64,000 nt of DNA from a virus (lineage: Duplodnaviria; Heunggongvirae; Uroviricota; Caudoviricetes): the IMG/VR virus record IMGVR_UViG_3300037307_000441, one strand, 5' to 3'. The translations under genes were made by a program, and so were the position numbers. Below are positions 4,360 through 63,644 of the stretch, piece after piece. Position 1 is the first letter of the stretch. Each line of letters starts with the position of its first letter. The notes under the pieces were generated by a model, which was given only the letters and a program-made list of their open reading frames with translations, was not told the DNA's origin and did no database searches.

Positions 4360-4428
4360 AAATTATATATTATTTTTTAAGAGAGTATTATTTTTTGATA
4401 TATAGACATAAATAAACTACAATAAGTT

Positions 4429-9704: not shown

Positions 9705-10202
9705 TTAAACTACCAAATTATTTATCTTATTATCTCTAATTTCTTCCTTTGTGGTTAAATCTTTATATCTTAAATTCCAAGTTACTACTAATGTCTTGAC
9801 ATTCAACCACTTAACTATATAGAATATTGCTATAGATCCGTATATAATTTTTTTCTCCATAAATTCCATCAAATCATCATCAGAATTAAATGAAATTGAG
9901 TCACAAGTGTAATCTTCACAAACTAATTGATTGCCCTCAATTTTAATTAGTTGGAATATTGGAGATTTTACAACCATTTTAACTTTTTCTCTGAAAAAAT
10001 CAAAATAATCACCAAACCACAAATCAGGATGGACTGTAGCCATTTGTATATTATTGTTACTTACATTACCAGCTATTATACAGTTATCATATAAAAGTTT
10101 TAATGGGCTTATATCCAATTTATCATTAAAATAAATTTGTGGTTCATTGCTTATTTTGGAAAATATGCTTACATCAAATTTTTGTGAATGTAATAAATTC
10201 AT
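9705..10202 (-). CDS. hypothetical protein
   Basis: 165-aa ORF. Confidence 0.45.
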   Translation of the reverse strand: MNLLHSQKFDVSIFSKISNEPQIYFNDKLDISPLKLLYDNCIIAGNVSNNNIQMATVHPDLWFGDYFDFFREKVKMVVKSPIFQLIKIEGNQLVCEDYTCDSISFNSDDDLMEFMEKKIIYGSIAIFYIVKWLNVKTLVVTWNLRYKDLTTKEEIRDNKINNLVV

Positions 10203-15900: not shown

Positions 15901-16199
15901 TTGCACAAGATTTCTTTGTTAAAGTAAAAGAACATAAGAACACATTCCAAGTTAGATTTGATATCTTAAACTTTGGCAATATGGTAAATGATAATTGGGG
16001 GGTTTCACAAAGAGCAGCCGCCCCTGCTTTGTTAAACTTTGTTAGTTATAACACAGTAGGCGAACCTACTTACAGATTATCAACTCAAAAATTTGTTGAT
16101 GGTACAACAACACTGGTTAGAGATTCTTACCAAAGAAATTCATCAGTATTTGATGTTTGGTCAGCACAATTAGGTATTAGATATATCTTCGGTAGATAA
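12903..16199 (+). CDS. TonB-dependent outer-membrane receptor-like protein (SusC/CarboxypepD_reg-type N-terminus, plug and beta-barrel)
   Basis: 1098 aa; signal peptide; N-terminal ISGVVKNEKGDVLAGASVH...GGYTI carboxypeptidase-regulatory-like domain typical of Bacteroidota TBDRs; long Gly/aromatic-rich barrel; C-terminal aromatic-rich strand; visibly GC-richer than neighbours. Confidence 0.8.
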   Translation: MKKTIMMSLLSLLVTFTTFGQITTSTISGVVKNEKGDVLAGASVHAQHQPTGTDYRTTTTKSGGYTIPAVRPGGPYLIHVSYVGYKTKEVTEVNTSLGLTTNVDIVLVEESKTLGEVTVVGTRNNTFSKDKTGASQQFGRRELQTIPIVGARTIDGITKYNPFGDGRSFGAQDSRMNNFTIDGSQFNNGFGLGSSAQAGGRTGSTAISLDAIDQLQLNIAPFDIRQSGFTGAGINAVTRSGTNNVEGSFYRTNRNNTSSYVGDKAYNVPVTSSKFDEEVWGFRLGAPIIKNKLFIFGNYESLVRTEPGTTWISDGSPLSGSQISRVKYSDMQTLSNFMRDKFGYETGPWEGYSNANESKKFLVRADWNINEKHKLTARYVHHNSFAEINISNSQSAGAGNRTTQFNAMSFKNSGYLIEDNTRSAVLELNSKFSNTLHNNLIVGYDKQLENRGYLSPMFPTIDIREGSATYTSVGFDPFTPSNKLDYGTFHITNNMTKYLNKHTLVFGANFESFKSNNLFFPASNGVYIFNSLADFYTAANQSLANGGAPSAFAPARFQLRYSALPGGVEPMQVLKSSRFDFYGQDEWNLNPDLKLTFGLRGSIIGFDNTALENPTVTAMTFANGEKFNTGTLPKTQLLWEPRFGFNYDVKGQKKTQIRGGTGIFTGRPPYVFISNQVGNNGVLTGFIDVSGAAANAFGFTADPNKYFIPSTPTLPSTFDLAFTDPNFKFPQVWKTNIAVDQKLPFGFIGSIEYLYNKTLNGVHYYNANLDNPIGTLSGGGLNITSVDNRWRFANNDAGVRVNDNVSMGAVLTNIDGAYHQSLTMRLEYPVKKGLWGSIAWTTAESFDYMSAGSIASGSWQSIKSVNGNNNVNLSLSDNFIKNRFVGLLGYRFEYGKKWGGATTVTLGYIGTQGGAFSYFVAGDLNGDRVRDNELIFVPLKGSDVKFQPLTVGTTVYTEADQQAAFDAFINQDPYLKNRRGQYAERNGGILPYLHRFDLSIAQDFFVKVKEHKNTFQVRFDILNFGNMVNDNWGVSQRAAAPALLNFVSYNTVGEPTYRLSTQKFVDGTTTLVRDSYQRNSSVFDVWSAQLGIRYIFGR

Positions 16200-24021: not shown

Positions 24022-24792
24022 ATGAAAACAATTTATGATATATTAGAAAGAGATTTAATCTTTTTTGACTTAGAAACAACAGGAACGGATTTGAAAAGAG
24101 ACCGAATAGTTGAAATATGTGCAATTAAATATAAGAAAAATCGTGGAAAAGAAATCTTACATAGATATTTGAATCCTGAAACTGAAATTGATCCTGTAGC
24201 AGTGGAAATGCACGGATTAACAAATGAGTTTTTAAAAGATTATCCATCATTATCTGAAGTTGCAGATGAAATATATAATTTTTTTAAAGGATGTGATTTG
24301 GGTGGATATAATTGTATAAATTTTGATATACCATTCTTGTTTGAAGAGTTATCAAGATGTAAAAAGTTTCTAAATGTTTTTAATGTTAATATTATTGATT
24401 CCTACAATCTATTAAATAAATGCGAGCCACGACGATTAAAAGATGTTTATAAAAACTTTTTTGGTGTTGAATTTGATAATCACCATAGTGCAGAAGCAGA
24501 TATTGAAGCAACAGTTAAAGTATTTGAAAAACAAATAGACGCTTATAAACTTGAAGATAAATCAATAAATGATATTTCGTCTATAATAAGAACAAGTGCA
24601 AATGGTGAATTAATGGTTGATATATCAGGTTGGTTCAAAAAGAAAAATGGTACATATCTTTTTGGTAGAGGAAAGCACAAAGACAAACCAGTTAAAGAAA
24701 ATGTATCATATTTGGAATGGCTGGTTAATGAAAGTGACATTGAAAATAATTCTAAAGCTGTGGCAAAAATATTATTAGAAAAGTTAAAATGA
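24022..24792 (+). CDS. DnaQ-like 3'-5' exonuclease (DEDDh family)
   Basis: LIFFDLETTGTD (Exo I), HGLTNEFL (Exo II region), HSAEADIEAT (Exo III, YxxxD/H). Confidence 0.75.
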   Translation: MKTIYDILERDLIFFDLETTGTDLKRDRIVEICAIKYKKNRGKEILHRYLNPETEIDPVAVEMHGLTNEFLKDYPSLSEVADEIYNFFKGCDLGGYNCINFDIPFLFEELSRCKKFLNVFNVNIIDSYNLLNKCEPRRLKDVYKNFFGVEFDNHHSAEADIEATVKVFEKQIDAYKLEDKSINDISSIIRTSANGELMVDISGWFKKKNGTYLFGRGKHKDKPVKENVSYLEWLVNESDIENNSKAVAKILLEKLK

Positions 24793-25709
24793 AATTAAAA
24801 CATATTATTAAAGCTCAACAATTTGATAGAGATTTATTGAATGATATATTCTCTAACTCAAATGAAATGGAATCAGTATTTAAAAATGGGCAATCTAAAT
24901 TATTAAGTGGTAAAATATTAGCCACAGTATTTTATGAACCATCAACAAGGACAAGATTATCATTTGAATCGGCAATGATGAGATTGGGTGGTAGGATAAT
25001 AACTACTGAAAATGCTAAAGAATTCTCATCTGCAGCTAAAGGAGAAAACATAGAAGATACAGTTAGAGTAATGCAATCTTACGCAGATGCCATCGTTATA
25101 AGACATCATGAATCTGGGACCGCAGAAAGGGCTAGCATGTTTTCAAATGTTCCAATCATAAATGCTGGAGATGGACCTGGACAACACCCAACACAGTCTC
25201 TAACCGATTTATATACAATACAAAAAGAATTAGGACAAGTTGATGATATTTCAATTGCTATGGTTGGTGACCTAGCAAATGGTAGAACAGTTCGTTCTCT
25301 TTGTTATCTATTATCAAAATATAAAAATGTTAAAATATTCTTTGTATCACCTGACGTTGTTAAAATGAAAGATGATATCAAACAATTTTTAACAAAGAAT
25401 AATGTTTCATTTGTAGAGGAAACTGATTTGAAAAAAGTGGCTCAAGTAGTTGATGTCATTTATCAAACCAGAATACAGAAAGAAAGATTTGGAGATAGAA
25501 TGGACGAATACTATATGGCTTCGGGTAAGTATATTATCAATGATGAAATATTATCTGTGATGAAAGAAAAATCTATTATCATGCACCCATTGCCAAGATT
25601 AGATGAAATATCCAATTCAGTTGATAGTGATCCAAGAGCAGCTTATTTTAGACAAGCACAAAATGCGGTATATGTTAGAGCAGCATTATTAAAACATTTA
25701 TTAGTATGA
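24789..25709 (+). CDS. pyrB: aspartate carbamoyltransferase catalytic subunit
   Basis: FYEPSTRTRLSFESA (STRTR carbamoyl-phosphate motif), GDGPGQHPTQSL, MHPLPR; ATCase-like loops; no pyrI nearby. Confidence 0.85.
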   Translation: MKLKHIIKAQQFDRDLLNDIFSNSNEMESVFKNGQSKLLSGKILATVFYEPSTRTRLSFESAMMRLGGRIITTENAKEFSSAAKGENIEDTVRVMQSYADAIVIRHHESGTAERASMFSNVPIINAGDGPGQHPTQSLTDLYTIQKELGQVDDISIAMVGDLANGRTVRSLCYLLSKYKNVKIFFVSPDVVKMKDDIKQFLTKNNVSFVEETDLKKVAQVVDVIYQTRIQKERFGDRMDEYYMASGKYIINDEILSVMKEKSIIMHPLPRLDEISNSVDSDPRAAYFRQAQNAVYVRAALLKHLLV

Positions 25710-26109: not shown

Positions 26110-26448
26110 ATGAAATATTCTACATTTGAAGGTAAAGTTATTGATACTAAGGAAATTGGTCATCAACACATAAGTAATATATATTGGTTTCAAAAAATTT
26201 TCCATGGTCAAGTGCATTCTATTATTATGGATAGAATTAATAATGAATTTAATGGTGAAATATTACCTTATAAACCACATCCAAAATTTACAGAAGAAAT
26301 AAATTATCTTGAAAATAGGGGAATGTTGATATGGAAAGAATCAAATGGAATTAGATGTGCGGATATAATATGGAATGGTCATGTTATTGGAGAGGCTAGA
26401 CATATTGAAGATGTGAGAGAAGATATTATAAATCAATTAGTTAAATAA
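26110..26448 (+). CDS. hypothetical protein
   Basis: 112-aa ORF. Confidence 0.45.
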   Translation: MKYSTFEGKVIDTKEIGHQHISNIYWFQKIFHGQVHSIIMDRINNEFNGEILPYKPHPKFTEEINYLENRGMLIWKESNGIRCADIIWNGHVIGEARHIEDVREDIINQLVK

Positions 26449-26475
26449 AAATTTGGTGATGTCATTTTTTATTCG

Positions 26476-26483
26476 TATCTTTG
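26476..26483 (+). promoter_or_regulatory. -7 promoter box (TTCGTATCTTTGT)
   Basis: extended cGTATCTTTGt motif 16 nt upstream of ATG 26500. Confidence 0.45.
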
Positions 26484-26499
26484 TAGATTAAATATAAGT

Positions 26500-29198: not shown

Positions 29199-29803
29199 TG
29201 ACAAAAGTATTTCCACACGATTTTGAACCAGTTTATTCACGCTATAAGGAATTTAATGTCAGATTTGTTCCGAACGTAATAAACGACCGAGATATCGGAA
29301 ATTCGATAGTTATCGCCTATAAAAATTATAAATCAGCTATTACCGCCATACGGAGCACACCTACATGGCAGGGAAGAAAAAGTCTCGTATATCTTTCATA
29401 TGCAATAGTCAACCCATTTGATTCATTTAATTCATATCTACACGATACTATTTCTGTTATTAGATATGGGAAAAATACACTTGATAAGTTGTCATCCTTT
29501 TTTAATAGAGATATTAATCCATTTGATTTAAGTTCAGAAGTTTCATTTCTATTTAAATTAAAACAAGAAAATGGAATGACTTTTTTTGAAATTGATCAAG
29601 TTATAGAATCAAAACATAATAAAATTTATGATGAATTTCATCCAGGTAAAAATGATAAAGAAGTAATTGCAAAATTTTTACAAAACCGAGATAAACATAT
29701 AGAAATATTGGCATTACAATTATCCGATGATGAGTATAAACCTGAGGTAATGGAAACATACAAAAGTATAATAAGAGGTTATAAAATAGGTCAATTAATA
29801 TGA
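29198..29803 (+). CDS. hypothetical protein
   Basis: 201-aa ORF. Confidence 0.45.
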   Translation: MTKVFPHDFEPVYSRYKEFNVRFVPNVINDRDIGNSIVIAYKNYKSAITAIRSTPTWQGRKSLVYLSYAIVNPFDSFNSYLHDTISVIRYGKNTLDKLSSFFNRDINPFDLSSEVSFLFKLKQENGMTFFEIDQVIESKHNKIYDEFHPGKNDKEVIAKFLQNRDKHIEILALQLSDDEYKPEVMETYKSIIRGYKIGQLI

Positions 29804-30162
29804 AATATACAGTTAGATTATACAAAAGTAGTTGGAATGTAGCTTATTTATTCGAACCAAAAAAAGAAGTGATACATGAATCTGTTATTGAAATTGATGA
29901 AAGTCCTACAATTGGAAATATAAGAGATTTTTTTAAAAAGGAATTTGGATTCACAATTGATGATTATGGTTCAAGGGAGATTGAATTAGCGATAGAAGGT
30001 GTTTGTAGATTGAGTCCGATAAAAATGACTAATGAATCAAATATTGATAAAGACACATATCCAGAAAATAAAAATGTAATAAATATCTATTTGAGAGAAG
30101 AAGAATATAAAAATTGGAAATCTTTTAATAGAGATAGAAATATAAATAAAATAATAAATTAA
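29800..30162 (+). CDS. hypothetical protein
   Basis: 120-aa ORF. Confidence 0.4.
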   Translation: MKYTVRLYKSSWNVAYLFEPKKEVIHESVIEIDESPTIGNIRDFFKKEFGFTIDDYGSREIELAIEGVCRLSPIKMTNESNIDKDTYPENKNVINIYLREEEYKNWKSFNRDRNINKIIN

Positions 30163-30167
30163 AATAT

Positions 30168-31247
30168 ATGAAAAGTAAAAGTAAAAAATTTTTGAAGGAT
30201 TATTTAAATGCATATGCTCCTGTATCTCAGGAATTTGAGGGACAAAGGGTTTGGATAGATTACATAAAAGAATATGTAGACGAAATGCATCAAGATACTT
30301 ATGGCACTGTGTGGGGAGTTATTAAAGGAAAGTATAAGAAAGGTGATGTCCCATATAAAGTTGCTATCGAAGCCCACTGTGATGAAATATCATGGATAGT
30401 TTCACATATCTCTGACGATGGTAAACTGAGTGTTAATCGTTTTGGTGGTTCTGATGTTCAGATTGCACCTTCAAAAAAAGTGGTAGTTCATACTAGAAAA
30501 AATGGAAGAGTACCAGGTGTTTTCGGATGGACAGCAATTCATCTTAGGAGGGGGAAAGATACTACTCCAGAATTAAAAAATCTCTTTATTGATCTTGGAT
30601 ATGATAGTAAAGAAAAAGTTAAGAATTTGGGGATAGAAGTTGGTAATATTGTTACCTTCTCAGACGAATTCGAAATTATGGGTGATTACTATGTTGGTAA
30701 ATCAGTAGATAATAAAATAGGTGGATTTGTTATAGCTGAAGTTGCACGAAAAATAAAAGAGAATAACATTGAGCTTCCTTTTGATCTTTATATAATCAAT
30801 GCTGTACAAGAAGAAGTCGGACTACATGGTGCGAAAATGGTAGCCCAAAATATTAAACCTGATGTAGCACTTATTACTGATGTTTGTCATAACACAGACA
30901 CCCCAGGAATTGATAAAAAACAAGAGTGTGATATTAGGGGTGGTAAAGGTGCGGTATTTGAGCATACAGCACAAAATCATAGAATGTTATTAGAGTTAAT
31001 GAGAGAAGTCGCAGACAAAGAAGAGATTCCATATCAACTAGAAGTCGGCTCTTATGGAAATGATACTATGGGATTCTTCTTAGCAAATGGAGGTACTCCA
31101 ACCGCCATTATTGCTACACCATTAAAATACATGCATACAACCGTTGAAATGGCTCATAAGGATGATGTTAAATCTGTAATTGATATTTTTTATCATACTT
31201 TACAAAATATTAAAAATGGTCAAAAATTCACTTATCATGAACTTTAA
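30168..31247 (+). CDS. M42-family glutamyl aminopeptidase / FrvX-like peptidase
   Basis: AHCDEISWIVSHISDDGKLSVNRFGG, VGKSVDNKIG, GAKM, metal-binding D/E/H pattern and ~360-aa size typical of M42. Confidence 0.7.
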   Translation: MKSKSKKFLKDYLNAYAPVSQEFEGQRVWIDYIKEYVDEMHQDTYGTVWGVIKGKYKKGDVPYKVAIEAHCDEISWIVSHISDDGKLSVNRFGGSDVQIAPSKKVVVHTRKNGRVPGVFGWTAIHLRRGKDTTPELKNLFIDLGYDSKEKVKNLGIEVGNIVTFSDEFEIMGDYYVGKSVDNKIGGFVIAEVARKIKENNIELPFDLYIINAVQEEVGLHGAKMVAQNIKPDVALITDVCHNTDTPGIDKKQECDIRGGKGAVFEHTAQNHRMLLELMREVADKEEIPYQLEVGSYGNDTMGFFLANGGTPTAIIATPLKYMHTTVEMAHKDDVKSVIDIFYHTLQNIKNGQKFTYHEL

Positions 31248-47821: not shown

Positions 47822-48160
47822 ATGAAAAATTTTAAAACGGCTTTGCTTGTATCAGCCTCTTTCGGATTGTTAGCATTCCTGTTATTTGATGGTGTAGAAT
47901 GGCTCGCAAAAAATATTAGTATGCAAATATCCTTTTTGATGCTAATACTAATATTTTCCACAATCTTTATTCTTTTTGTAATCAAGATGTATCAATCAAT
48001 TAAGTGGTGGAAAGAATCCGCTAAATACCGTGAAACTTTGAAAGAAGGGGATGAAGTCTTAATTCATGGGCCCAATACACAATATAAAGCGACCGTAGTT
48101 GAAATTAACGACATTAAAGTAGTTGTCAAAGTTCATAAAAATTCAATTTATAAACCGTAA
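47822..48160 (+). CDS. hypothetical membrane protein
   Basis: start moved to ATG 47822 (MKNFKTALL...); two TM helices. Confidence 0.4.
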   Translation: MKNFKTALLVSASFGLLAFLLFDGVEWLAKNISMQISFLMLILIFSTIFILFVIKMYQSIKWWKESAKYRETLKEGDEVLIHGPNTQYKATVVEINDIKVVVKVHKNSIYKP

Positions 48161-48426
48161 TGTATACCATACCAGAAGAAATAAAAAAAATTGGAATAAA
48201 TCGAGAAATGATAGATTACCATTTCTCGAAGACGAAAATGAAAGATTTCGAAATAGAACAAATTGAATTTGTTAAAATAATGAATGATGCCTCTGTGCTA
48301 ATTAGATTAAAAATTTTTAATCCGAATTCACCTTACAATAGCCGCAGTAAATTTAGAAATATTGTAATACAAATATCTAAAGGAAAAATTAGGGATAATA
48401 AAATCAATAAGCTATTAAACGAATAA
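48160..48426 (+). CDS. hypothetical protein
   Basis: 88-aa ORF. Confidence 0.4.
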   Translation: MYTIPEEIKKIGINREMIDYHFSKTKMKDFEIEQIEFVKIMNDASVLIRLKIFNPNSPYNSRSKFRNIVIQISKGKIRDNKINKLLNE

Positions 48427-54225: not shown

Positions 54226-54429
54226 ATGAAGGCTTATTGTTATAAATCATATAATTGGGATATTAAACCATTTTTTGAATATAAAGAAGGTGAGTGGTAT
54301 AAAATATCCCAGACCATATTGGCATATAAATTTAATGATGGTGGTGCTTCAATAAGTGAAGATATATTTAAAAAACACTTTTTAACACAAGAAGAATTTA
54401 GAGAAATACAATTAGATAAAATTTTATGA
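54226..54429 (+). CDS. hypothetical small protein (tandem paralog 1)
   Basis: C-terminus FLTQEEFREIQLDKIL. Confidence 0.4.
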   Translation: MKAYCYKSYNWDIKPFFEYKEGEWYKISQTILAYKFNDGGASISEDIFKKHFLTQEEFREIQLDKIL

Positions 54430-54692
54430 TAGTAAATATATATTGTCATACAGGGATGTATTGGAACTTAACTAAACCCTACTTTCGTTATGAAACGGGT
54501 AAAACATATCAAGTTAAAATATATAATAATGCTTTCAACTACCTTTTTAATAAAAAAACACACCCGGCTCACCAAGAAAAAACAGTCTACTCATTCGCAG
54601 ATTGTGATATGATATTAGGCGAAGACGACTTTAGAAAATATTTCTATACTATAGAAGAATTTAGAGAAAAACAAATTAATGAGATTTTATGA
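54426..54692 (+). CDS. hypothetical small protein (tandem paralog 2)
   Basis: C-terminus FYTIEEFREKQINEIL; ATGA overlaps on both sides. Confidence 0.4.
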   Translation: MIVNIYCHTGMYWNLTKPYFRYETGKTYQVKIYNNAFNYLFNKKTHPAHQEKTVYSFADCDMILGEDDFRKYFYTIEEFREKQINEIL

Positions 54693-55012
54693 AAATATTT
54701 GTAGCGGGTCCTTTTAACCACCCCGATGAATCCATAAAAGAGTCACGACTCAACAAAATAACTGAATATTGCACACAACTATTCCTAAATGGAATGTCTC
54801 CTATTTCACCACTACTAATAGGTTTAAATATGGCAAAATTTGCTAATCTTCCTACCGATACCGAAACATGGAAAGTATATTCACAAACACTATTAAAAGG
54901 TTGTGATGAACTACACATACTAATGTTAGATGGATGGGAGAAATCCAAAGGAGTAGAATATGAAATTGAAGCAGCTAAAAAAATGAACATTACAATAAAA
55001 TGGATAAAGTAG
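54689..55012 (+). CDS. DUF4406 / nucleoside 2-deoxyribosyltransferase-like protein
   Basis: MKIFVAGPFNHPDE...LMLDGWEKSKGVEYEIEAAKKMNITI fits the DUF4406 pattern (MKIYIAGP...GWe.S.Ga.lE...A). Confidence 0.5.
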   Translation: MKIFVAGPFNHPDESIKESRLNKITEYCTQLFLNGMSPISPLLIGLNMAKFANLPTDTETWKVYSQTLLKGCDELHILMLDGWEKSKGVEYEIEAAKKMNITIKWIK

Positions 55013-55287
55013 AAATACCAATTTTAAAAATAGAATTTCCGGAAAGAGATAATAAATCTATAGTATCTATTAAATTTAGTAGTAGCAAACAATTGTCTGA
55101 CTTTATTGGAAATAACAAAAGATTATTCAAATCATGGATGCCTATTTGGCGGAATATCGCAACAATCTCCTATGAATATACCATGTATGAAGTAAACAAA
55201 ATAATTAAAATCAAACAAAAAGAAATTATCGCAGAAGTTAGTCAAATAACATTAAGAGATAGAAATCTTGATATAATATTAAATTAA
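55000..55287 (+). CDS. hypothetical protein
   Basis: 95-aa ORF. Confidence 0.4.
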   Translation: MDKVEIPILKIEFPERDNKSIVSIKFSSSKQLSDFIGNNKRLFKSWMPIWRNIATISYEYTMYEVNKIIKIKQKEIIAEVSQITLRDRNLDIILN

Positions 55288-55288
55288 T

Positions 55289-55320
55289 TTTGGTGGTCTC
55301 AGAACTTTGTCGTATCTTTG
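55289..55320 (+). promoter_or_regulatory. complete Bacteroidetes-type promoter TTTG-N20-TATCTTTG (extended consensus TTTGGTGGTCTCAGAA...CGTATCTTTG)
   Basis: -33 TTTG at 55289-92, 20-nt spacer, -7 box 55313-20; near-identical copies at 55817, 61296, 62106, 62188, 62311. Confidence 0.55.
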
Positions 55321-55342
55321 TATTCATCAATCAAATATCACT

Positions 55343-55602: not shown

Positions 55603-55815
55603 ATGTATAAGATTGTTATTAGTAAAAATGGATTGGGTTACAAAGCAGTTCTGTGGAAAAAATGCTACTTATTTTTTTGGCTACCTGATACCATACATCA
55701 AACCAAATTTGGTTATGAAACCAATCTGGAAGAAACTGTAAACACATGGGTAAAGGAATTTAATATTCCTATAGACATGGTTAAATCTCCTATCGGCAAA
55801 TTTATCCACCAATAA
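55603..55815 (+). CDS. hypothetical small protein
   Basis: 70-aa ORF. Confidence 0.4.
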   Translation: MYKIVISKNGLGYKAVLWKKCYLFFWLPDTIHQTKFGYETNLEETVNTWVKEFNIPIDMVKSPIGKFIHQ

Positions 55816-55816
55816 A

Positions 55817-55848
55817 TTTGGTGGTTTCAGAAATTATTCGTATCTTTG
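55817..55848 (+). promoter_or_regulatory. complete promoter TTTGGTGGTTTCAGAAATTATTCGTATCTTTG
   Basis: TTTG-N20-TATCTTTG. Confidence 0.55.
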
Positions 55849-55850
55849 TG

Positions 55851-55913
55851 TTCACAAAGTAGGCAGACCTGTCCTATTAAGAGTAGGGGGTTTTAGAACT
55901 GCCTACTTTGTGA
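55851..55913 (+). promoter_or_regulatory. 14-bp perfect inverted repeat forming a large leader stem-loop
   Basis: CACAAAGTAGGCAG ...31 nt... CTGCCTACTTTGTG immediately after the -7 box; an inner hairpin CCTA-TTAAGAG-TAGG sits in the loop. Confidence 0.5.
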
Positions 55914-57951: not shown

Positions 57952-58311
57952 ATGAAATGGAATACAGAAAAAATCATAAATGATCTTAAAGACATACTTA
58001 AAGATGTTAAAATTACTACCAATGATTATCCCGAAGGAGGACACTATTGCCGAGATATCTATGTTAGTAAATCTGATGATGATGACGACGATGCTATCTC
58101 TATCGTTGGATTTATCGATGATGGAGATCTCTCTGATGTAGATACACCCAATGAAAATATTGAACTAGTTGAAGTCCGAAACATAGATTCAGATAGCGAT
58201 GGGGGCCTACAAACAAAAGATAAACAACTTCGCAATATCTATCATACAATATGCGATTACTTCGACGATAACGATTGTGAAGTAGTTAGAAATTTACGAG
58301 ATTATTTTTAA
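57952..58311 (+). CDS. acidic hypothetical protein
   Basis: start moved to ATG 57952 (MKWNTEKI...); SKSDDDDDDAIS acidic stretch. Confidence 0.4.
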   Translation: MKWNTEKIINDLKDILKDVKITTNDYPEGGHYCRDIYVSKSDDDDDDAISIVGFIDDGDLSDVDTPNENIELVEVRNIDSDSDGGLQTKDKQLRNIYHTICDYFDDNDCEVVRNLRDYF

Positions 58312-58323
58312 AATAATAAAACT

Positions 58324-58551
58324 ATGAGAAAATCAATACTAATATTCATAGGCATAATATCACTAAATGCTTGCAACAGAAAATGCAAAGTACCATTAAG
58401 ATACAAAAATGGCGATATCGTATACCTAAAACCAGACTCAAATAAAGCAGTAATTACCAAAGCATCAGAATGCTATACCTATAGAATAAGCTATAAACTA
58501 CCTAATGGAGACTATACAGAAACCACCGTTTTTGATTATCAAATATTCTGA
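58324..58551 (+). CDS. small lipoprotein
   Basis: MRKSILIFIGIISLNAC. Confidence 0.4.
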   Translation: MRKSILIFIGIISLNACNRKCKVPLRYKNGDIVYLKPDSNKAVITKASECYTYRISYKLPNGDYTETTVFDYQIF

Positions 58552-58581
58552 ACATAAATAAACTACCTAACGTGTAGCATG
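58552..58581. repeat. 30-bp intergenic repeat copy 1 (ACATAAATAAACTACCTAACGTGTAGCATG)
   Basis: begins immediately after stop TGA of the upstream gene; 19 nt before next ATG. Confidence 0.6.
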
Positions 58582-58599
58582 ACACTAAAATAAAAAATT

Positions 58600-58938
58600 A
58601 TGATAAAACACTTCTTTTCACTCGAATTCTTTAAAGAACTTAAAGTTCTTTTTTTACTAGAATCAATTATATTGCTACTCGGTTACGCATTGATTAATAC
58701 ACCAAATGTTCAACAAGTAATTCAACAAAATAACCTATCACCCTTCAATTTATTTGCACTATTACTTAGCTTATTCATATGGTCACTATCTTGCTTATTA
58801 GACCCCAAAAAATATTTTAACCTAGCAACACTAATCGCAACAGGATTCATTACTTACCTTGCCTTTTGGTTCACCTTTGAAATTATGTTTAAAGTCCCAA
58901 ACTTCGCCTTAGAAGCCAATCAAATCATCGGAATCTAA
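58600..58938 (+). CDS. hypothetical membrane protein
   Basis: several TM helices. Confidence 0.4.
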   Translation: MIKHFFSLEFFKELKVLFLLESIILLLGYALINTPNVQQVIQQNNLSPFNLFALLLSLFIWSLSCLLDPKKYFNLATLIATGFITYLAFWFTFEIMFKVPNFALEANQIIGI

Positions 58939-58952
58939 TAAAAAAATAAATT

Positions 58953-59150
58953 ATGAAAATCATCATCGGAATCATTTTAATGTATATTATACTAGTAATT
59001 AGCTCCGCTTCATTATGGAAATATATCTGGAAAGGCCACCGACTCGAAGATACATGGATGAAATCAATAAAAATATTTAGCATAGGATATTTTATCGTAG
59101 GGATAATTCTAATAATGTTTTTTTTAATTATTCATTACATCTCAACATAA
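58953..59150 (+). CDS. small membrane protein
   Basis: two TM helices. Confidence 0.35.
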   Translation: MKIIIGIILMYIILVISSASLWKYIWKGHRLEDTWMKSIKIFSIGYFIVGIILIMFFLIIHYIST

Positions 59151-59174
59151 ATAAACTACCTATCGTGTAGCATG
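59145..59174. repeat. 30-bp intergenic repeat copy 2 (ACATAAATAAACTACCTATCGTGTAGCATG)
   Basis: one mismatch to copy 1; overlaps last codons of upstream gene. Confidence 0.6.
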
Positions 59175-59199
59175 GTGTTAATTGTAAATTTTTATTAAA

Positions 59200-59517
59200 A
59201 TGATATGGATATTTAAAATAAATGAAGTGTTTTGGAATAATAAACCAAAAATTAATAACTATTATAGTTTCGATACCGATGATATCAACTTCGATATAAC
59301 TAATTATGATATCAGTTTACACTTCCCCACAGCCGATTATTTCATAGTTAACGAATCTAACTTAAAAAAAATCTATAAACTAGAACCACGATTCGTATCT
59401 ATCGGAGAAGGCAATCCTTTTAGAATACCATCAAATAATCAAAATATAAAAAACCTTATTATCGAATTCTTCCAAGAACAACGAGATAATAAAATAAATA
59501 AAATAATTTCTGACTAA
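59200..59517 (+). CDS. hypothetical protein
   Basis: 105-aa ORF. Confidence 0.4.
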   Translation: MIWIFKINEVFWNNKPKINNYYSFDTDDINFDITNYDISLHFPTADYFIVNESNLKKIYKLEPRFVSIGEGNPFRIPSNNQNIKNLIIEFFQEQRDNKINKIISD

Positions 59518-59547
59518 ACATAAATAAACTACCTATCGTGTAGCATG
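59518..59547. repeat. 30-bp intergenic repeat copy 3
   Basis: identical to copy 2. Confidence 0.6.
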
Positions 59548-59564
59548 ATATAAATAATAAAATT

Positions 59565-59858
59565 ATGATTGATATTATACAAATAAATCTTCTTCGTGAT
59601 GGCGGAACTAGTGTGTGGGTATCCACAGAAGATATCAAAGGAATAGATATGAATGATATGATTAGTATATGGAATATTATAAAATCTGATTGCAATAAAT
59701 ATCATATAGATTATCGTATTGGTTCCAAAACAAAAGGAGAATTATTTGATAGATATCCTAGCGACGAAGGAGCTCAAATATTAGATAAATCCCAATTTAA
59801 CTTCGTCACTAAAGAACAAATATTAAGAGATAATAAAATTAATAATATTGTCAAATGA
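59565..59858 (+). CDS. hypothetical protein
   Basis: 97-aa ORF. Confidence 0.4.
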   Translation: MIDIIQINLLRDGGTSVWVSTEDIKGIDMNDMISIWNIIKSDCNKYHIDYRIGSKTKGELFDRYPSDEGAQILDKSQFNFVTKEQILRDNKINNIVK

Positions 59859-60109
59859 GTAAAAAAGCAACATGGAGTTCATGGGTAGAAGCACCCAAAT
59901 CTATGGATATGGAAAACGCAATCCGCAAATATTGCATGGAATCAGGAGTAACTATACATAGCCTTTATTCTAAAGAAGTAACCCGCGATAGAATCGATAA
60001 AATACTAGGAATCAACCGCGAAACTATCTACTTTAAACTAGAAGGAAATTATAATATCCTTAGACACCTACAATCACAACTAGCTAAACAAACAGAAGAT
60101 GAAGAATAA
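59855..60109 (+). CDS. hypothetical protein
   Basis: 84-aa ORF. Confidence 0.4.
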   Translation: MSKKATWSSWVEAPKSMDMENAIRKYCMESGVTIHSLYSKEVTRDRIDKILGINRETIYFKLEGNYNILRHLQSQLAKQTEDEE

Positions 60110-60114
60110 GTTGA

Positions 60115-60144
60115 ACATAAATAAACTACCTAACGTGTAGCATG
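60115..60144. repeat. 30-bp intergenic repeat copy 4
   Basis: identical to copy 1; followed by GTGTTA as in copy 2. Confidence 0.6.
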
Positions 60145-60174
60145 GTGTTATGTAAAAAAAATAATATATAATAT

Positions 60175-60540
60175 ATGGAAAAGATAGATATACAAATATT
60201 GATAAATGATTTAATGCATGATGAAGATTTTAAATCAGCATGTGAACATGAGAGTGTTAAATGGGCAATGGCTTTGTATTTAGGTGATGCTGAATATGAT
60301 GTTAAAGATTTCCCAGTAGGTAATCAATTTGAATTAGTTGATGCTTACAGTGAAAAGGGAGATGGGTATCAAGAAGAAACAACTTATGGTATTTTTAAAA
60401 GGAAGTCTGATAGTAAATATTTTAAGATATGGGTACATGATGCAGGTATGATTGGTTCATCAACTCTAACACTGTGTCAATATATGGAGGAGGTTCAACC
60501 TAAACAAAAAAAGATAACTACTTGGGAAAATTTTAAATAA
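60175..60540 (+). CDS. hypothetical protein
   Basis: 121-aa ORF. Confidence 0.4.
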   Translation: MEKIDIQILINDLMHDEDFKSACEHESVKWAMALYLGDAEYDVKDFPVGNQFELVDAYSEKGDGYQEETTYGIFKRKSDSKYFKIWVHDAGMIGSSTLTLCQYMEEVQPKQKKITTWENFK

Positions 60541-60548
60541 ATAATAAT

Positions 60549-60929
60549 ATGAAAACGTGGGCAATTTTTAGTGTGTATGATTATAAGGGTGGTGAATTGA
60601 GATCCAATTGTAATTTAACTTATGATCGTTTTATTAATTCATTAGCAGAGATGTTTGAGAATGTCAGGATAGATTTATCTGAAGTTCGTGATATTAAGAT
60701 TAAAAGGGTTTTGGATGAGCCGACTGATACAGAATTGAATTTTCTGATTGATAAGTTAAAGAAGGCATTGAATGATGAAGATTTCTTTTCTATTTATGCT
60801 GGGGGAGATGGATTTTGTGGAGAGATATTTGAGGTAGAGGATGGTAGAATGAAAGAGGTGAATATTGAGGATTACTTAGAAGATGTAGCTAAGAAGATAT
60901 ATAATTACCGTGTAAGATTAAAATATTAA
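60549..60929 (+). CDS. hypothetical protein
   Basis: 126-aa ORF. Confidence 0.4.
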   Translation: MKTWAIFSVYDYKGGELRSNCNLTYDRFINSLAEMFENVRIDLSEVRDIKIKRVLDEPTDTELNFLIDKLKKALNDEDFFSIYAGGDGFCGEIFEVEDGRMKEVNIEDYLEDVAKKIYNYRVRLKY

Positions 60930-60934
60930 TTAAT

Positions 60935-61294
60935 ATGAATAGAATATTAACAATAGTTCCGGAAAGTCTTGATGGTGGATATCTTGGTGGATATTCGCAG
61001 CGTGATGTTGTTAGGGCATCCTTTTCATATTTACATGGAGATTTAGAGTCGATGGTTGGGTATGATATTTTTTCTATATTGAAGTTTGATTTATTGGATA
61101 ATGAGATTGATGATAGGTGGGTATCAGAGGGATTGAAGGAAGGTATTTATCAGGGTCGTTGTTTAGGTAAGGAGGTGACTTATTTTCGATGGAAGAATGG
61201 TCGTCGGTCCAGTGGGTTGGTAGTTTTGAATACTGATAAGGAGTCGTATCAAGATGCCTTGAAGAAGTATAAAGAGAAGGCTGATTTTATTTAA
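60935..61294 (+). CDS. hypothetical protein
   Basis: 119-aa ORF. Confidence 0.4.
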   Translation: MNRILTIVPESLDGGYLGGYSQRDVVRASFSYLHGDLESMVGYDIFSILKFDLLDNEIDDRWVSEGLKEGIYQGRCLGKEVTYFRWKNGRRSSGLVVLNTDKESYQDALKKYKEKADFI

Positions 61295-61295
61295 A

Positions 61296-61327
61296 TTTGG
61301 TAGTATCAATTATTTGTTGTATCTTTG
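61296..61327 (+). promoter_or_regulatory. complete promoter TTTGGTAGTATCAATTATTTGTTGTATCTTTG
   Basis: TTTG-N20-TATCTTTG; followed by palindrome TGATTCATCAATCA. Confidence 0.55.
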
Positions 61328-61348
61328 TGATTCATCAATCACAATTTT

Positions 61349-61909
61349 ATGCCTAATACAGTTAAAGTACCTCGTAAAGTATTTGTCAATAAGACAATGA
61401 TTCAATCTGAATTTAATGGAGTTCCTGATAAGGTTATTCCTCGTAAAGAATCATTGGTAAAGGGTAGTGAAGTTAAATTCCATATATTTGATGGATGGGT
61501 AGATTATCCGATTTATTTTACTTTGGATGAATTGGATAAGACTAACTATAAGAATTATAATCGTAAGAAGTATCTTTATATTTATTTTCCTGAACATAGT
61601 GGTTCAGATGCTAAGGGTATTCTTAAATATGAAGTAGTAGGTGTAACTAAGAGGAAATCTACTAAGGATATTCTATTCATTGTTAAGGAAAAAGATTTTC
61701 GTGGGAATGACTATCATCAATATTATCGTATTGATGGTGAGAATATTATCAGTCATGGTCCAGTTTTTACTAACACATTGGATGGTTTTAATAAGTCGGA
61801 TGTGGGTGATGAATATAAAGGATATCGTAATGCTAAGTGGATTAAGTTAGACTTGGATGAATATAGTGATAAGTTGGGTAAGGTGTATCAATATCAAAAA
61901 AGCCTGTAA
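61349..61909 (+). CDS. hypothetical protein
   Basis: 186-aa ORF. Confidence 0.45.
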   Translation: MPNTVKVPRKVFVNKTMIQSEFNGVPDKVIPRKESLVKGSEVKFHIFDGWVDYPIYFTLDELDKTNYKNYNRKKYLYIYFPEHSGSDAKGILKYEVVGVTKRKSTKDILFIVKEKDFRGNDYHQYYRIDGENIISHGPVFTNTLDGFNKSDVGDEYKGYRNAKWIKLDLDEYSDKLGKVYQYQKSL

Positions 61910-61927
61910 AATGAAAGGAGATAAATA

Positions 61928-62103
61928 ATGAATAAGGACTGGATAGATAAGCATTTTGAGTTAAAAGAAAAGATTCTGTTAGTAATGGAAAGGAATCTTG
62001 AGTCTAGGGAAAAGTTATTTGACCGAATTCATAATTTGACGGATGAAAGGTTAAAAGAGAAGAAGAAAAAGAAAAATTTACTACAAAGGTTATTGAAAAA
62101 ATA
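61928..62103 (+). CDS. small basic coiled-coil protein (58 aa)
   Basis: MNKDWIDKHFELKEK...ERLKEKKKKKNLLQRLLKK; read manually. Confidence 0.3.
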
Positions 62104-62105
62104 AA

Positions 62106-62137
62106 TTTGGTGGTTTCAAAATAAAGGCGTATCTTTG
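62106..62137 (+). promoter_or_regulatory. complete promoter TTTGGTGGTTTCAAAATAAAGGCGTATCTTTG
   Basis: TTTG-N20-TATCTTTG; no ORF downstream. Confidence 0.5.
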
Positions 62138-62145
62138 TATTGTGA

Positions 62146-62172
62146 TTGGGAGGTGAGCTAACTAGCACCCAC
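62146..62172 (+). ncRNA. promoter-proximal 27-nt element TTGGGAGGTGAGCTAACTAGCACCCAC (copy 1), candidate tiny sRNA/leader hairpin
   Basis: starts ~9 nt after the -7 box; GTGAG...CTCAC stem; no coding potential. Confidence 0.35.
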
Positions 62173-62187
62173 TCACAGAAAAAAAGA

Positions 62188-62219
62188 TTTGGTAGATTAG
62201 AAAATGTATCGTATCTTTG
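62188..62219 (+). promoter_or_regulatory. complete promoter TTTGGTAGATTAGAAAATGTATCGTATCTTTG
   Basis: TTTG-N20-TATCTTTG. Confidence 0.5.
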
Positions 62220-62232
62220 TGTAACAAAACGG

Positions 62233-62259
62233 TTGGGAAGTGAGCTAACTAGCACCCAC
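62233..62259 (+). ncRNA. promoter-proximal 27-nt element copy 2 (TTGGGAAGTGAGCTAACTAGCACCCAC)
   Basis: one mismatch to copy 1; followed by T-rich TTGTTTTGT. Confidence 0.35.
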
Positions 62260-62310
62260 CTTGTTTTGTAGATTAGTTCTTTGATTGATGATTTATAAAT
62301 GTTTCACGTT

Positions 62311-62342
62311 TTTGGTGATTTGAAAATTTCTCTTTATCTTTG
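62311..62342 (+). promoter_or_regulatory. complete promoter TTTGGTGATTTGAAAATTTCTCTTTATCTTTG
   Basis: TTTG-N20-TATCTTTG; bracketed by inverted repeat ATGTTTCAC (62299) / GTGAAACAT (62342). Confidence 0.5.
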
Positions 62343-62515
62343 TGAAACATTAGACGGTTCGGTTCTTTGTCCTATGAGGACCAACGTCTTTTAAGATGCG
62401 TGCGGCATCAGATAATGTCAGGTGGCCCTGATGGGTACCCTTTACGTGGTTGACTACGAAACCACATTCTGTAACAATCTGACTAACGTGGTAATGGCCG
62501 CCCATCTTTTTTTTT
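62343..62515 (+). ncRNA. candidate ~170-nt non-coding RNA bounded by promoter and terminator
   Basis: no ORF; GC-richer; internal hairpins (GATGC-GTGCG-GCATC); ends in ATGG-CCGC-CCAT hairpin plus a 9-T run. Confidence 0.35.
62494..62515 (+). terminator. rho-independent terminator (short GC stem plus T9)
   Basis: ATGGCCGCCCAT followed by TCTTTTTTTTT. Confidence 0.4.
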
Positions 62516-62648
62516 GAACTATTGAAACTTGTTATAGATTGGAACTTAGTAAATTTGTCAGGGTGATAAATTTTTGCCTAACTTGGGAAACTATTGGATA
62601 TTAATGGCGTCTGGGTTCTTTTTTTATGTAAAGTTCTTTTAAATATTT

Positions 62649-62811
62649 GGTCTGTTCGTCTAGCGGTGGTTAAAGTGTTATCTAATCACATCTTATGCTG
62701 AAATTGATGTGCTGTAGGGGAGCCAATCCCCAATAAGATGATGGTGACATTTATCCTTAGGATGACTTACTTTTCGGTAAGGGGACAGTGGTTCGAATCC
62801 ACTACAGGCTA
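62649..62811 (+). ncRNA. second aberrant tRNA-like gene (~160 nt) with internal insertion
   Basis: acceptor GGTCTGT pairs with ACAGGCT (two G:U); D-loop-like AGCGGTGG; T-arm AGTGG TTCGAAT CCACT; variable-arm-like hairpin CTTAC-TTTTCG-GTAAG (also in the 25882 element); possible anticodon loop ATCTAAT (CTA) weakly supported. Confidence 0.3.
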
Positions 62812-63273
62812 CAAAAGTGTGTTGTTCCTTAAATGGAATAGATATTGAGCTGACGAAGGCCACACCACCTGGCGTGCTATATGCGAAGTGACCAGGAACG
62901 GTAGAAGCTTACAATCCAATGTAATGTAAGATGGCTGTACCTAAATGTATCTTAGGGTAGGTTCAACTGATACACAACACATAAAGTTAAAGACTTCGAG
63001 TAAAAGGAATACGCAATTAGTGGGGATAGTATTCTGAAAGAATCCACTAATCAAAGAAGTTCTTTGAAATTTTGGGAGTTTAGGTTTAGAAAACGTATGC
63101 TGGTCACACCGTTATATAATCGGTCGTTGTCTAGTTGCAGTAGTTAAAAGCTACAAGTGGTTGGAATAACATTTCGAGACCTTTTTGTGATGTGTATATT
63201 AAGGGTGCCGATTCCCTTTCTAAACTCCTTATTTTTTCTGATTATTTCAACGGTGACGTTGTTAAATTAATAT

Positions 63274-63362
63274 CGCGGATTAGAGTAGAGGTCAAACTCG
63301 TCGGGCTCATAACCCGAAGTCCTAAACACTGGGCACGTCTGGTTCGATTCCAGCATCCGCTA
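63274..63362 (+). ncRNA. non-canonical tRNA-like gene (CAT anticodon loop, 21-nt variable region)
   Basis: CGCGGAT-TA-GAGT AGAGGTCAA ACTC-G-TCGGG CTCATAA CCCGA-21 nt-(T)CTGG TTCGATT CCAG(C)-ATCCGCT-A; C1:T72 mismatch; 4-bp T-stem; terminator follows. Confidence 0.35.
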
Positions 63363-63372
63363 CTAATGAATG

Positions 63373-63400
63373 AATCCCTTTGACAAAAAGGGATTTTTTT
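63373..63400 (+). terminator. rho-independent terminator
   Basis: AATCCCTTT-GACA-AAAGGGATT plus T-run. Confidence 0.55.
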
Positions 63401-63417
63401 ATATCAAAAATATTCCG

Positions 63418-63425
63418 TATCTTTG
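63418..63425 (+). promoter_or_regulatory. -7 promoter box (TATTCCGTATCTTTGT)
   Basis: 18 nt upstream of ATG 63444. Confidence 0.4.
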
Positions 63426-63443
63426 TATTCTAAATCAATCAAG

Positions 63444-63644
63444 ATGACAAAAGAAAGAAACTATGGGGTAATTAAGGTTGACAATGATAGGGTCAAGCTT
63501 TATAATTCTCAGACCAGTTATATTACTATTAACGTGGGTTCTCCCGTTAATGAAGCTCGATGGGTAGGTGATAAGTTGCTGGTCACTATGGAAAATGGTA
63601 AGGTTCGTCAGTATACAAGTCAGACAAGTTATACAGCAATCTAA
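63444..63644 (+). CDS. hypothetical small protein
   Basis: track ORF starts TTG 63423 inside the promoter box; ATG 63444 (MTKERNYGVIKVDNDR...) preferred; internal repeat LYNSQTSYITI / QYTSQTSYTAI. Confidence 0.4.
   Translation: MTKERNYGVIKVDNDRVKLYNSQTSYITINVGSPVNEARWVGDKLLVTMENGKVRQYTSQTSYTAI

Follow-up and report, generated by a model that had tools for sequence, protein, structure and literature searches.

What is the role of a 30-bp sequence that recurs, nearly invariant, between the small genes of an uncultured phage? The question is raised by a 64,000-nt stretch of DNA from a member of Caudoviricetes (IMG/VR record IMGVR_UViG_3300037307_000441), which was analysed as a whole and is referred to here as the window. 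The 30-mer ACATAAATAAACTACCTAWCGTGTAGCATG, hereafter the repeat, has four exact matches in the window, at 58552, 59145, 59518 and 60115, all on the plus strand. An earlier note, made from the sequence alone, had listed four candidate roles for it: a second promoter class, an RNA-processing site, an intercistronic translation-coupling element or an operator for a DNA-binding protein. Among these, the second promoter class is the best supported, by the layout of the gaps that hold the repeat, its association with a leader, and the presence of a canonical promoter in its place in a relative; the roles that build on a palindrome have been weakened. Our tentative answer is that the repeat is part of a portable promoter-plus-leader cassette of a non-host class, which would also act as a homology joint for gene shuffling.

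Repeat copies occupy short gaps between small co-oriented genes

The four copies and their A/T variation were correctly described in the earlier note, the variable letter (W) being at position 19. No additional copies were detected in the 64-kb window at up to 3 mismatches, and 100 dinucleotide-preserving shuffles yielded a mean of 0.00 matches to the 30-mer, with a chance expectation of 0; the repeat is real and non-random. R1 (58552-58581, A at position 19) has its first base directly after the TGA of the open reading frame (ORF) 58324-58551 and leaves 18 nt to the ATG at 58600. R2 (59145-59174, T at position 19) closes ORF 58953-59150 with its own TAA and is followed after 25 nt by the ATG at 59200. 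R3 (59518-59547, T at position 19) directly follows the TAA of ORF 59200-59517, 17 nt ahead of the ATG at 59565, and R4 (60115-60144, A at position 19) lies 5 nt past the TAA of ORF 59855-60109, with 30 nt to the ATG at 60175. The repeat starts, relative to the upstream stop, are accordingly 0 (R1), -6 (R2), 0 (R3) and +5 nt (R4), so that the rule given in the earlier note, a start at the upstream stop codon in every case, holds for R1 and R3, but not for R2, which overlaps the ORF end, or for R4, which is 5 nt off.

The gaps between the same-strand ORFs measure 47-49 nt for R1-R3 and 65 nt for R4, in agreement with the earlier description of short gaps between small genes of one strand. The flanking genes are small and mostly lack homologs. 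Start to start, the copies are spaced by 593, 373 and 597 nt, with protein-coding genes in between. Three further copies were found in a related phage (see below), at 5, 5 and 17 nt from the upstream stop. All seven copies are intergenic and co-oriented with the flanking genes, and lie 0-17 nt past the stop codon (the overlap of R2 apart) and 3-30 nt ahead of a start codon. The motif scan of the window, a check that the earlier note had proposed, places all full copies between co-oriented genes.

Alignment of the copies indicates that the conserved unit slightly exceeds 30 nt and reads YTNA-ACAYAAATAAACTACCTAWYGTGTAGCATG-RYR, and in some pairs of copies the similarity continues through the leader as far as the start codon. 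The leader of R1 (58582-58599) is A-rich, of the type 'ACAC...', and similar to the leaders of two copies in the related phage; the leaders of R2 (59175-59199) and R4 (60145-60174) share the type 'GTGTTA...'; and that of R3 (59548-59564), ATATAAATAATAAAATT, is identical in the related phage.

The repeat is restricted to one phage and a close relative

Megablast of the repeat against 50,697 phage records produced no near match. IMG/VR contained neither the full motif nor an extendable half (35 half-motif matches, none of which extends), and IMG/VR scans with two flanking proteins gave no match. GTDB genomes gave one match and JGI metagenomes one unrelated match, both of them GC-rich chance matches (L007 and L005). 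Two contigs, L001 and L002, match the window at 100% identity and represent the same phage, assembled independently; the first base of L002 is that of R4. Three repeat copies are present in one related phage, from metagenome JACCDP01 (contigs L003 and L004). Within the databases searched, the repeat is confined to this phage and this one close metagenomic relative. A homolog search with protein 57467 recovered two relatives only, and no repeat was found in the more distant relatives that share flanking genes (L006, L008-L017, L018, L019 and L021-L024). Upstream of a 58%-identity relative of gene 59565 (L067), there is a doubtful, degenerate resemblance, AAACT...GTAG...ATATAAATAA, on a contig that ends 49 nt upstream.

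Between the two phages, the repeat is extremely conserved. The seven non-redundant copies vary at only 3 of the 30 positions, namely 4 (T/C), 19 (A/T) and 20 (C/T). R3 is orthologous to the copy at L003:1858, as both precede homologs of gene 59565. Together with their leaders, these two copies are identical at 45 of 47 positions; the 47 nt in front of R3 and of its counterpart are unrelated (18/47), and gene 59565 and its L003 homolog share 73% nucleotide and 55% protein identity. Orthologous genes of the two phages are 70-91% identical at the nucleotide level, and the canonical promoters in the neighbouring orthologous region are ~81% identical. Because the repeat is better conserved than both the coding sequences and the canonical promoters, the whole 30 nt must be either under stronger constraint or continually homogenised. 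Furthermore, two L003 copies have ~60 nt of repeat and leader in common ahead of unrelated genes, so that the transferable unit appears to be the repeat together with its leader.

These comparisons bear on the simplest alternative, namely, that the repeat has no function of its own and is a remnant of recent local junction duplications, for example of what was once the 5' end of a gene, with gene conversion keeping the copies identical. The copies are indeed clustered within 1.6 kb, the 5' half of the repeat resembles a generic stop-plus-initiation junction of this genome, and the repeat is absent from the more distant relatives examined. Its near-identity across two phages, which exceeds that of coding sequences and canonical promoters, and its position ahead of unrelated genes in both genomes make this alternative very improbable.

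Two observations on partial or altered copies can be added here. Within ORF 58324-58551, 45 nt upstream of R1, the plus-strand sequence ATAAACTACCTAATG (58493-58507) corresponds to positions 7-21 of the repeat variant at L003:1858 (nhmmer E = 0.5); this possible internal fragment may be a slipped partial duplication or a chance match, and its significance is uncertain. In the related phage, comparison of L003:83-107 with L004:1918-1920, from contigs of one metagenome, reveals a 22-nt deletion in the leader directly behind the repeat. In L004, this deletion brings the ATG of the repeat itself in frame with the downstream ORF, a case of micro-diversity at the repeat-leader junction.

Repeats mark several joints of a hyper-variable gene array

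In the window, the order of genes and repeats is 57467, 57940, 58324, R1, 58600, 58953, R2, 59200, R3, 59565, 59855, R4, 60175. In JACCDP01, a homolog of 57467 is followed by a repeat, a new gene A, homologs of 59200 and 57940, a new gene B, a repeat, a new gene C, a repeat and a homolog of 59565; then come three new genes, two more paralogs of 59565 and a homolog of 60175. Thus, between the anchors 57467 and 60175, genes have been reordered, replaced and duplicated in L003/L004. Three homology breakpoints map within 5 nt of a repeat edge: 57947 (L003:48, where the L003 repeat begins at 53), 59517 (L003:1857, the repeat beginning at 59518/1858) and 60148 (L003:3702; R4 ends at 60144 and L003 has no repeat there). 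Several other breakpoints fall at plain gene boundaries without a repeat. The repeats therefore mark several, but not all, joints of the hyper-variable gene array. Given that identical copies in direct orientation lie between the genes, they probably serve as homology patches.

A stronger version of this idea casts the repeat primarily as a DNA-level recombination or mobility site, either a crossover site that delimits cassettes, as in integrons or mini-elements, or the landing or target sequence of a LAGLIDADG-like homing endonuclease. Apart from the three breakpoints, this version can draw on the direct repeats bounding blocks of 1-4 genes, the content between which is wholly different in the two close relatives, and on the block of gene 59855 and R4, an indel in comparison with L003 whose end lies 3 nt beyond the 3' end of the repeat. 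Stop codons are present in all three frames of the repeat (TAA, TAA and TAG, as read from the sequence), and the restriction to one lineage is what would be expected of a young selfish element. However, no integrase or recombinase was found among the best 25 of 40 Pfam and the best 25 of 30 PHROG families matched by 90 window proteins, and an attC-like architecture is missing (30 nt, a 4-bp inverted repeat, R''/R' boxes not conserved). Except in the case of gene 59565, the repeat is not kept consistently by either its upstream or its downstream gene, and ordinary homologous recombination at any conserved promoter would leave the same picture. On balance, we consider a dedicated recombination site doubtful; an endonuclease gene elsewhere in the window, which also bears on this version, is discussed below.

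A canonical promoter takes the place of the repeat in a more distant relative

The window has a GC content of 29% and consists of tightly packed small ORFs, 97 of 123 on the plus strand, with eight tRNA genes. It also contains a strong family of canonical promoters (D1), ~41 nt long, with the structure AAATTTGG-N-TATCTTTGT, that is, of the TTTG-N20-TAnnTTTG type. The family matches the layout of promoters read by the primary sigma factor of Bacteroidota, -33 TTTG / -7 TAnnTTTG. Of the 17 TATCTTTG boxes in the window, 16 are intergenic, typically 15-22 nt ahead of an ATG. In five of the canonical promoters, the upstream TAA is fused to ATTTGG, with 25 nt from the stop to the -7 box and gaps of 51-55 nt. 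The link to an upstream stop codon, which had been regarded as a property of the repeat, is therefore not specific to it, as canonical TATCTTTG promoters likewise begin at the stop (TAA-ATTTGG...). As side observations on this family, its members (for example 55283-55323, 55811-55851, 61290-61330, 62100-62140 and 26446-26486, in the form AAATTTGG-N20-TATCTTTGT) are unusually long and well conserved, are present in all related contigs and are routinely fused to an upstream TAA stop.

No TATCTTTG box is present between 55841 and 61320, the stretch that holds all four repeats. The repeat-bearing gaps, at 47-65 nt, have the same minimal stop-to-start layout as the canonical-promoter gaps of 51-55 nt. 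In L018, a more distant relative, a canonical Bacteroidota-type promoter, ATTGG-N19-TAACTTTG, lies in the gap ahead of the homolog of gene 59565 and ends 17 nt short of the ATG; in the window and in L003, this site is occupied by the repeat and its leader. This replacement is the best single argument that the repeat may function as a promoter. As the earlier note had stated, the repeat does not belong to the canonical class: neither the repeat nor the leaders contain a TAnnTTTG box. A host-type promoter hidden in the repeat or leader was rejected for the same reason, and the patterns of sigma-70 and sigma-54 promoters do not fit either.

We therefore propose a cassette of ~50-65 nt that would begin at the stop codon of the preceding gene, comprise the repeat and a short A-rich leader, and end at the next start codon, ahead of small accessory genes in a hyper-variable region of an AT-rich phage. 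The repeat would represent a second promoter class, not recognised by the primary sigma factor of the host, and would be recognised sequence-specifically over essentially its whole length, by an RNA polymerase form that is phage-encoded or contains an alternative sigma factor. Transcription would start near the 3' end of the repeat (around ...GCATG-R). Probably, the repeats would also provide homology patches for the insertion, deletion and swapping of genes, like the promoter-early stem-loop (PeSL) cassettes of T4-type phages.

Which polymerase form might read such a promoter? An invariant AAC lies at the 5' edge of the conserved block, CGT follows 17 nt later, and the conservation stops ~8 nt past the CGT. 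Promoters of extracytoplasmic function (ECF)-type sigma factors have a -35 AAC / -10 CGT layout, with the two boxes 16-17 nt apart. The AAC-N17-CGT arrangement is found in six of the seven copies, L003:1858 having TGT, and 0.2% of the window 34-mers conform to an AAC-N16/17-CGT layout. We take this geometry only as a lead: the match was recognised post hoc, the spacer does not vary, TGT replaces CGT in one copy, and neither an ECF sigma in the window nor further convincing members ahead of genes came to light. Specifically, phmmer with RpoE and SigW sequences as queries gave no match to an ECF sigma in the window, and no convincing further member of the AAC-N16/17-CGT or AAACTAC class was found upstream of window genes. 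The invariant spacer better suits a reader that contacts the whole element, such as a T7-like polymerase. Comparison with the T4-type late promoter, which is gp55-dependent and has TATAAATA at -10 upstream of late genes, shows a match at 7 of 8 positions with CATAAATA of the repeat, in a low-complexity sequence of a 29% GC genome; YATAAATA occurs ahead of only a handful of genes, at variable distances.

Several observations weigh against the promoter-cassette reading. The ECF-like match was made post hoc, after other promoter models had failed, and is weakened by the CGT to TGT change in L003:1858; the spacer is invariant, although a two-box sigma promoter needs no such invariance. The window, which covers only a part of the genome, yielded neither a sigma factor nor a phage RNA polymerase. 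Four copies within 1.6 kb, in 64 kb of the window plus 5.8 kb, are few for a temporal promoter class. The lack of the repeat in the distant relatives points to a young or fast-evolving signal rather than a deeply conserved one, and the breakpoints at boundaries without repeats imply that recombination at repeats cannot explain all of the shuffling. Finally, the half-copy of the repeat described below has GAC instead of AAC and lacks CGT.

The palindrome is at chance level

The imperfect palindrome CTAC...GTAG, which the earlier note had singled out, is present but carries no signal. It forms a 4-bp stem with a 7-nt loop and a minimum free energy of about -2 kcal/mol (z-scores -0.5 to -0.9), longer contexts of the repeat fold no better than shuffled sequences, and perfect inverted repeats of at least 4 bp occur in 51% of real 30-mers from the window. 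The palindrome is therefore at chance level and was rejected as a signal, which removes the main argument for a structured RNA site and for a dimeric operator. An intrinsic (rho-independent) terminator was rejected as well, given the weak fold, the absence of a T-run and the absence of a terminator-like site at any copy. A structured RNA was likewise discarded, on account of the weak, non-significant fold and the lack of an Rfam match: the covariance models of Rfam 15 gave no match at the gathering threshold, nor at E<=1 over 58300-63500.

An operator for a phage DNA-binding regulator, with the CTAC-N7-GTAG dyad as its binding core, could act through a repressor or activator on read-through transcription or bind a nucleoid- or partition-type protein. 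In favour of this reading, 11 bp separate the centres of the two half-sites, the sole variable position inside the dyad (W19) is also its centre, and the extreme conservation would fit a protein-DNA contact surface. Each arm of the dyad, however, has only 4 bp, which is the chance level noted above; the invariant 5' 12 nt and the 3' CATG lie outside any symmetry; operators normally go with a promoter, and these gaps lack one of the canonical type; and a symmetric site would not need the strict co-orientation with genes. An operator is hence improbable.

A further reading, at the RNA level, does not depend on the palindrome. The repeat could be an intercistronic element inside one long transcript that starts from the promoter at 55841, acting either as a single-stranded recognition site at which an endoribonuclease or RNA-binding protein would control processing or stability, or as a ribosome-loading module in which the terminal AUG opens a tiny upstream ORF ending beside the real start codon. 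In line with this reading, all copies are on the sense strand within a 5.4-kb stretch without a canonical promoter, and the 5' half of the repeat resembles A-rich pre-start sequences of the genome (...AATAAACTATG at 28605 and 58324). From the conserved ATG (positions 28-30), mini-ORFs of 2-9 codons can be read, which close 1-13 nt ahead of the main start; in L004, this ATG shares the frame of the main ORF. In an AT-rich leader, however, chance alone is expected to place in-frame stops within 17-30 nt, the downstream genes already have typical A-rich initiation regions, and CGTGTAGC, just upstream of the repeat ATG, is unlike the initiation regions of the genome. No stable or conserved RNA structure was identified, there is no Rfam match even at E<=1, and the equivalent gap of L018 carries a promoter, not an RNA site. 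We regard an RNA-level element as unlikely, if still worth serious consideration.

A half-copy of the repeat precedes a putative mobile endonuclease gene

The earlier note had also reported a partial copy 8 nt upstream of the ATG at 4429, and this holds: the 15-nt left half of the repeat, ACATAAATAAACTAC, is found exactly at 4406-4420, 8 nt before that ATG. It lies within a conserved block (4397-4428, plus strand) upstream of gene 4429-5331, the product of which matches PHROG 4645 'endonuclease' (6e-23) and PHROG 1271 'HNH endonuclease' (2.5e-11). The protein scores slightly under the LAGLIDADG_3 cut-off, and several distant homologs contain LAGLIDADG_3; it is LAGLIDADG-like and has N-terminal CxxC repeats. 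Its gene appears to be mobile and free-standing. Homologs of the endonuclease (86% identity in L060 and 59% in L061-L066) have different upstream neighbours, and in all of them the block (GA)TATATA(GA)CATAAATAAACTACAATA(A/C)GT stands directly before the start codon, so that a ~30-nt upstream block is kept with the endonuclease gene in at least three phage lineages. Because the block is constant despite the different neighbours, the 15-mer is older and more widespread than the 30-mer, and it travels with the mobile gene as part of the 5' control region.

The common 15-mer core suggests a common reader, be it a polymerase, a ribosome or an RNase; this idea fits both a promoter with its leader and an RNA-level element, for which the presence of the 15-mer in the endonuclease leader, 8 nt from the ATG, is an argument, and does not decide between them. 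For the recombination-site version, the exact 15-mer shared with a block that moves with a mobile endonuclease gene in three lineages is again a supporting point. However, the right half of the repeat was not found downstream of the endonuclease gene, so the repeat is not split by this gene, and intact repeats and the endonuclease gene coexist in one genome. Splitting of a repeat by the endonuclease gene was accordingly rejected.

Taken together, the 30-mer and the 15-nt core that it shares with the 5' flank of the endonuclease gene could be imagined as the recognition sequence of dedicated phage machinery that turns small genes into portable cassettes, based either on a non-canonical polymerase or sigma factor that would at the same time target recombination, or on a nuclease or recombinase specific to the site. 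Large phages with Bacteroidota-type promoters would then have an integron-like way to capture genes, built on a 30-bp site that is not palindromic. As a joint proposition, it is a long shot.

Other features of the window

The phage-like genes of the window encode minor tail and tail proteins and an exonuclease subunit of DNA polymerase, and the auxiliary genes include pyrB and those for an M42 peptidase, a TonB-receptor-like barrel and FKBP. Among the auxiliary genes of bacterial type (12903-16199, 24789-25709, 30168-31247 and others), one codes for a SusC/TonB-receptor-like outer-membrane barrel of 1098 aa, and others for an M42 aminopeptidase, a dTDP-sugar epimerase, PTH2 and FKBP; the best phage match of the aspartate carbamoyltransferase is within a 595-kb uncultured phage. 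This gene set is consistent with a very large phage genome. The window is probably part of a large uncultured phage whose host, to judge from the sequence, would be a member of Bacteroidota.

Four TATCTTTG promoters, at 62130, 62212, 62335 and 63418 (region 62100-63450), have no ORF behind them, and two of these are followed, at 62146 and 62233, by the 27-nt repeat TTGGGAGGTGAGCTAACTAGCACCCAC. The region is kept in relatives (L001 2220-3600, L003 5750-6900 and L008 11110-11800) and contains tRNA-like T-arm sequences (GGTTCGAATCC); the single called tRNA is a Met tRNA at 63275, and no Rfam match was found in 62100-63450 at E<=1. Probably, the ORF-less promoters drive small RNAs or unusual tRNA-like genes.

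A C-terminal motif, R-[DE]-x-K-[IL]-[ND]-x-[IL]-[IL], located within 6 residues of the C-terminus, is shared by 18 of the 123 predicted proteins (~15%); outside protein ends, it has 2 matches in 17,273 positions, which corresponds to a ~180-fold enrichment at the ends. The carriers, for example 59200-59517, 59565-59858, 48160-48426, 9705-10202 (minus strand), 3468-3779, 54426-54692 and 29800-30162, are otherwise unrelated, and the motif is also present in L003, L006 and L018, relatives having the same tail (REEKINQIL, RDRKINKIING). Possible roles are those of a common tag, for targeting, packaging or interaction, and of a 3' patch for recombination that the genes share. An 82-nt direct repeat of 72% identity (54353-54434 and 54616-54697), at the 3' ends of two adjacent small genes, spans this motif plus the next start codon and suggests local tandem gene duplication.

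Implications and comparison with known systems

Should the repeat prove to be a promoter, it would define a second class of transcription in large, AT-rich, uncultured phages of a lineage that has Bacteroidota-type promoters, and would imply an alternative polymerase specificity that is encoded by the phage or hijacked. In practical terms, the 30-mer is a precise tag by which other arrangements of the genes of this phage could be retrieved from reads. Large phages are known for hyperplastic regions and for conserved upstream motifs specific to a lineage, so the repeat is a useful but fairly ordinary kind of element.

Several known classes of repeats resemble it in part. Clustered regularly interspaced short palindromic repeat (CRISPR) arrays consist of 23-47 nt repeats and non-coding spacers of similar length; a CRISPR array was rejected, because the start-to-start spacing here is 373-597 nt and the intervals are protein-coding. 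Repetitive extragenic palindromic (REP) sequences and bacterial interspersed mosaic elements (BIMEs), like the repeat, are ~30-40 nt long and follow stop codons within operons. REPs, however, are strong imperfect palindromes found in both orientations, whereas the repeat has a chance-level 4-bp dyad and a single orientation, so that identity with REP/BIME was rejected as well. Integron attC sites share with the repeat the arrangement of promoter-less small genes in the same orientation, with a repeated site after each stop and a content that differs between relatives. Unlike the repeat, attC sites are 57-141 bp long and have an extended imperfect dyad (R''-L''/L'-R') and R''/R' core boxes. They also depend on the IntI integrase, a tyrosine recombinase, and no such protein is among the best-matching Pfam and PHROG families of the window given above. 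Since the repeat covers 30-33 nt with a 4-bp dyad and the attC core GTTRRRY adjoins one copy only, an attC site was rejected on size, dyad and core boxes.

Promoters offer further parallels. Those of group 4 (ECF) sigma factors share with the repeat the AAC at the 5' edge and the CGT 17 nt downstream, and the conservation of the repeat ends ~8 nt past the CGT, where ECF promoters, with starts 6-8 nt after the CGT, begin transcription. The invariant spacer and the one TGT copy set the repeat apart from them. Phage-specific promoters recognised over their whole length include those of the T7/T3/SP6 class, of ~23 bp, and the hairpin promoters of the N4 virion RNA polymerase, the early ones of which are few and clustered. 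Like these, the repeat exists in a few near-identical copies of 20-30 bp without a variable spacer, directly upstream of genes and co-oriented with them, in one narrow phage lineage. It has no sequence similarity to the T7, T3, SP6 or N4 promoters and lacks a hairpin of the N4 type (5-7-bp stem, 3-nt loop), and no gene for a single-subunit or virion RNA polymerase is among the best-matching Pfam and PHROG families of the window.

In the way it might work, the repeat resembles the PeSL cassettes of T4-type phages (Arbiol et al. 2010, PMC2839356; Comeau et al. 2014, PMC4122927), which combine a promoter of the host sigma-70 consensus, a strong stem-loop terminator and a Shine-Dalgarno site. Like the repeat, PeSLs are intergenic motifs of composite, conserved structure that span the interval from the upstream stop codon to the next start codon, and both are directly repeated in hyperplastic regions of small ORFan genes. 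In PeSLs, the insertions, deletions and replacements that separate close relatives have their breakpoints in the motif, and mini-circles form; for the repeat, three breakpoints lie within 5 nt of its edges and others at gene boundaries that lack a copy. With respect to placement, the repeat behaves as a PeSL, fully occupying gaps of 47-65 nt between small ORFan genes in a region that is reshuffled in the relative. Unlike a PeSL, it has no host-type promoter (-33 TTTG / -7 TAnnTTTG), sigma-70 hexamer pair, significant hairpin or Shine-Dalgarno site, and it is invariant over its full length, which PeSLs are not. A closer analogue of PeSLs in the window is the canonical TATCTTTG family, an element separate from the repeat. 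As both the host-consensus promoter and the terminator stem-loop are missing, the repeat would be PeSL-like in its working but is not a member of the PeSL class. If it is a promoter, the PeSL idea, that regulatory cassettes are the joints at which accessory genes are shuffled, would reach beyond T4-type phages and beyond host-consensus promoters.

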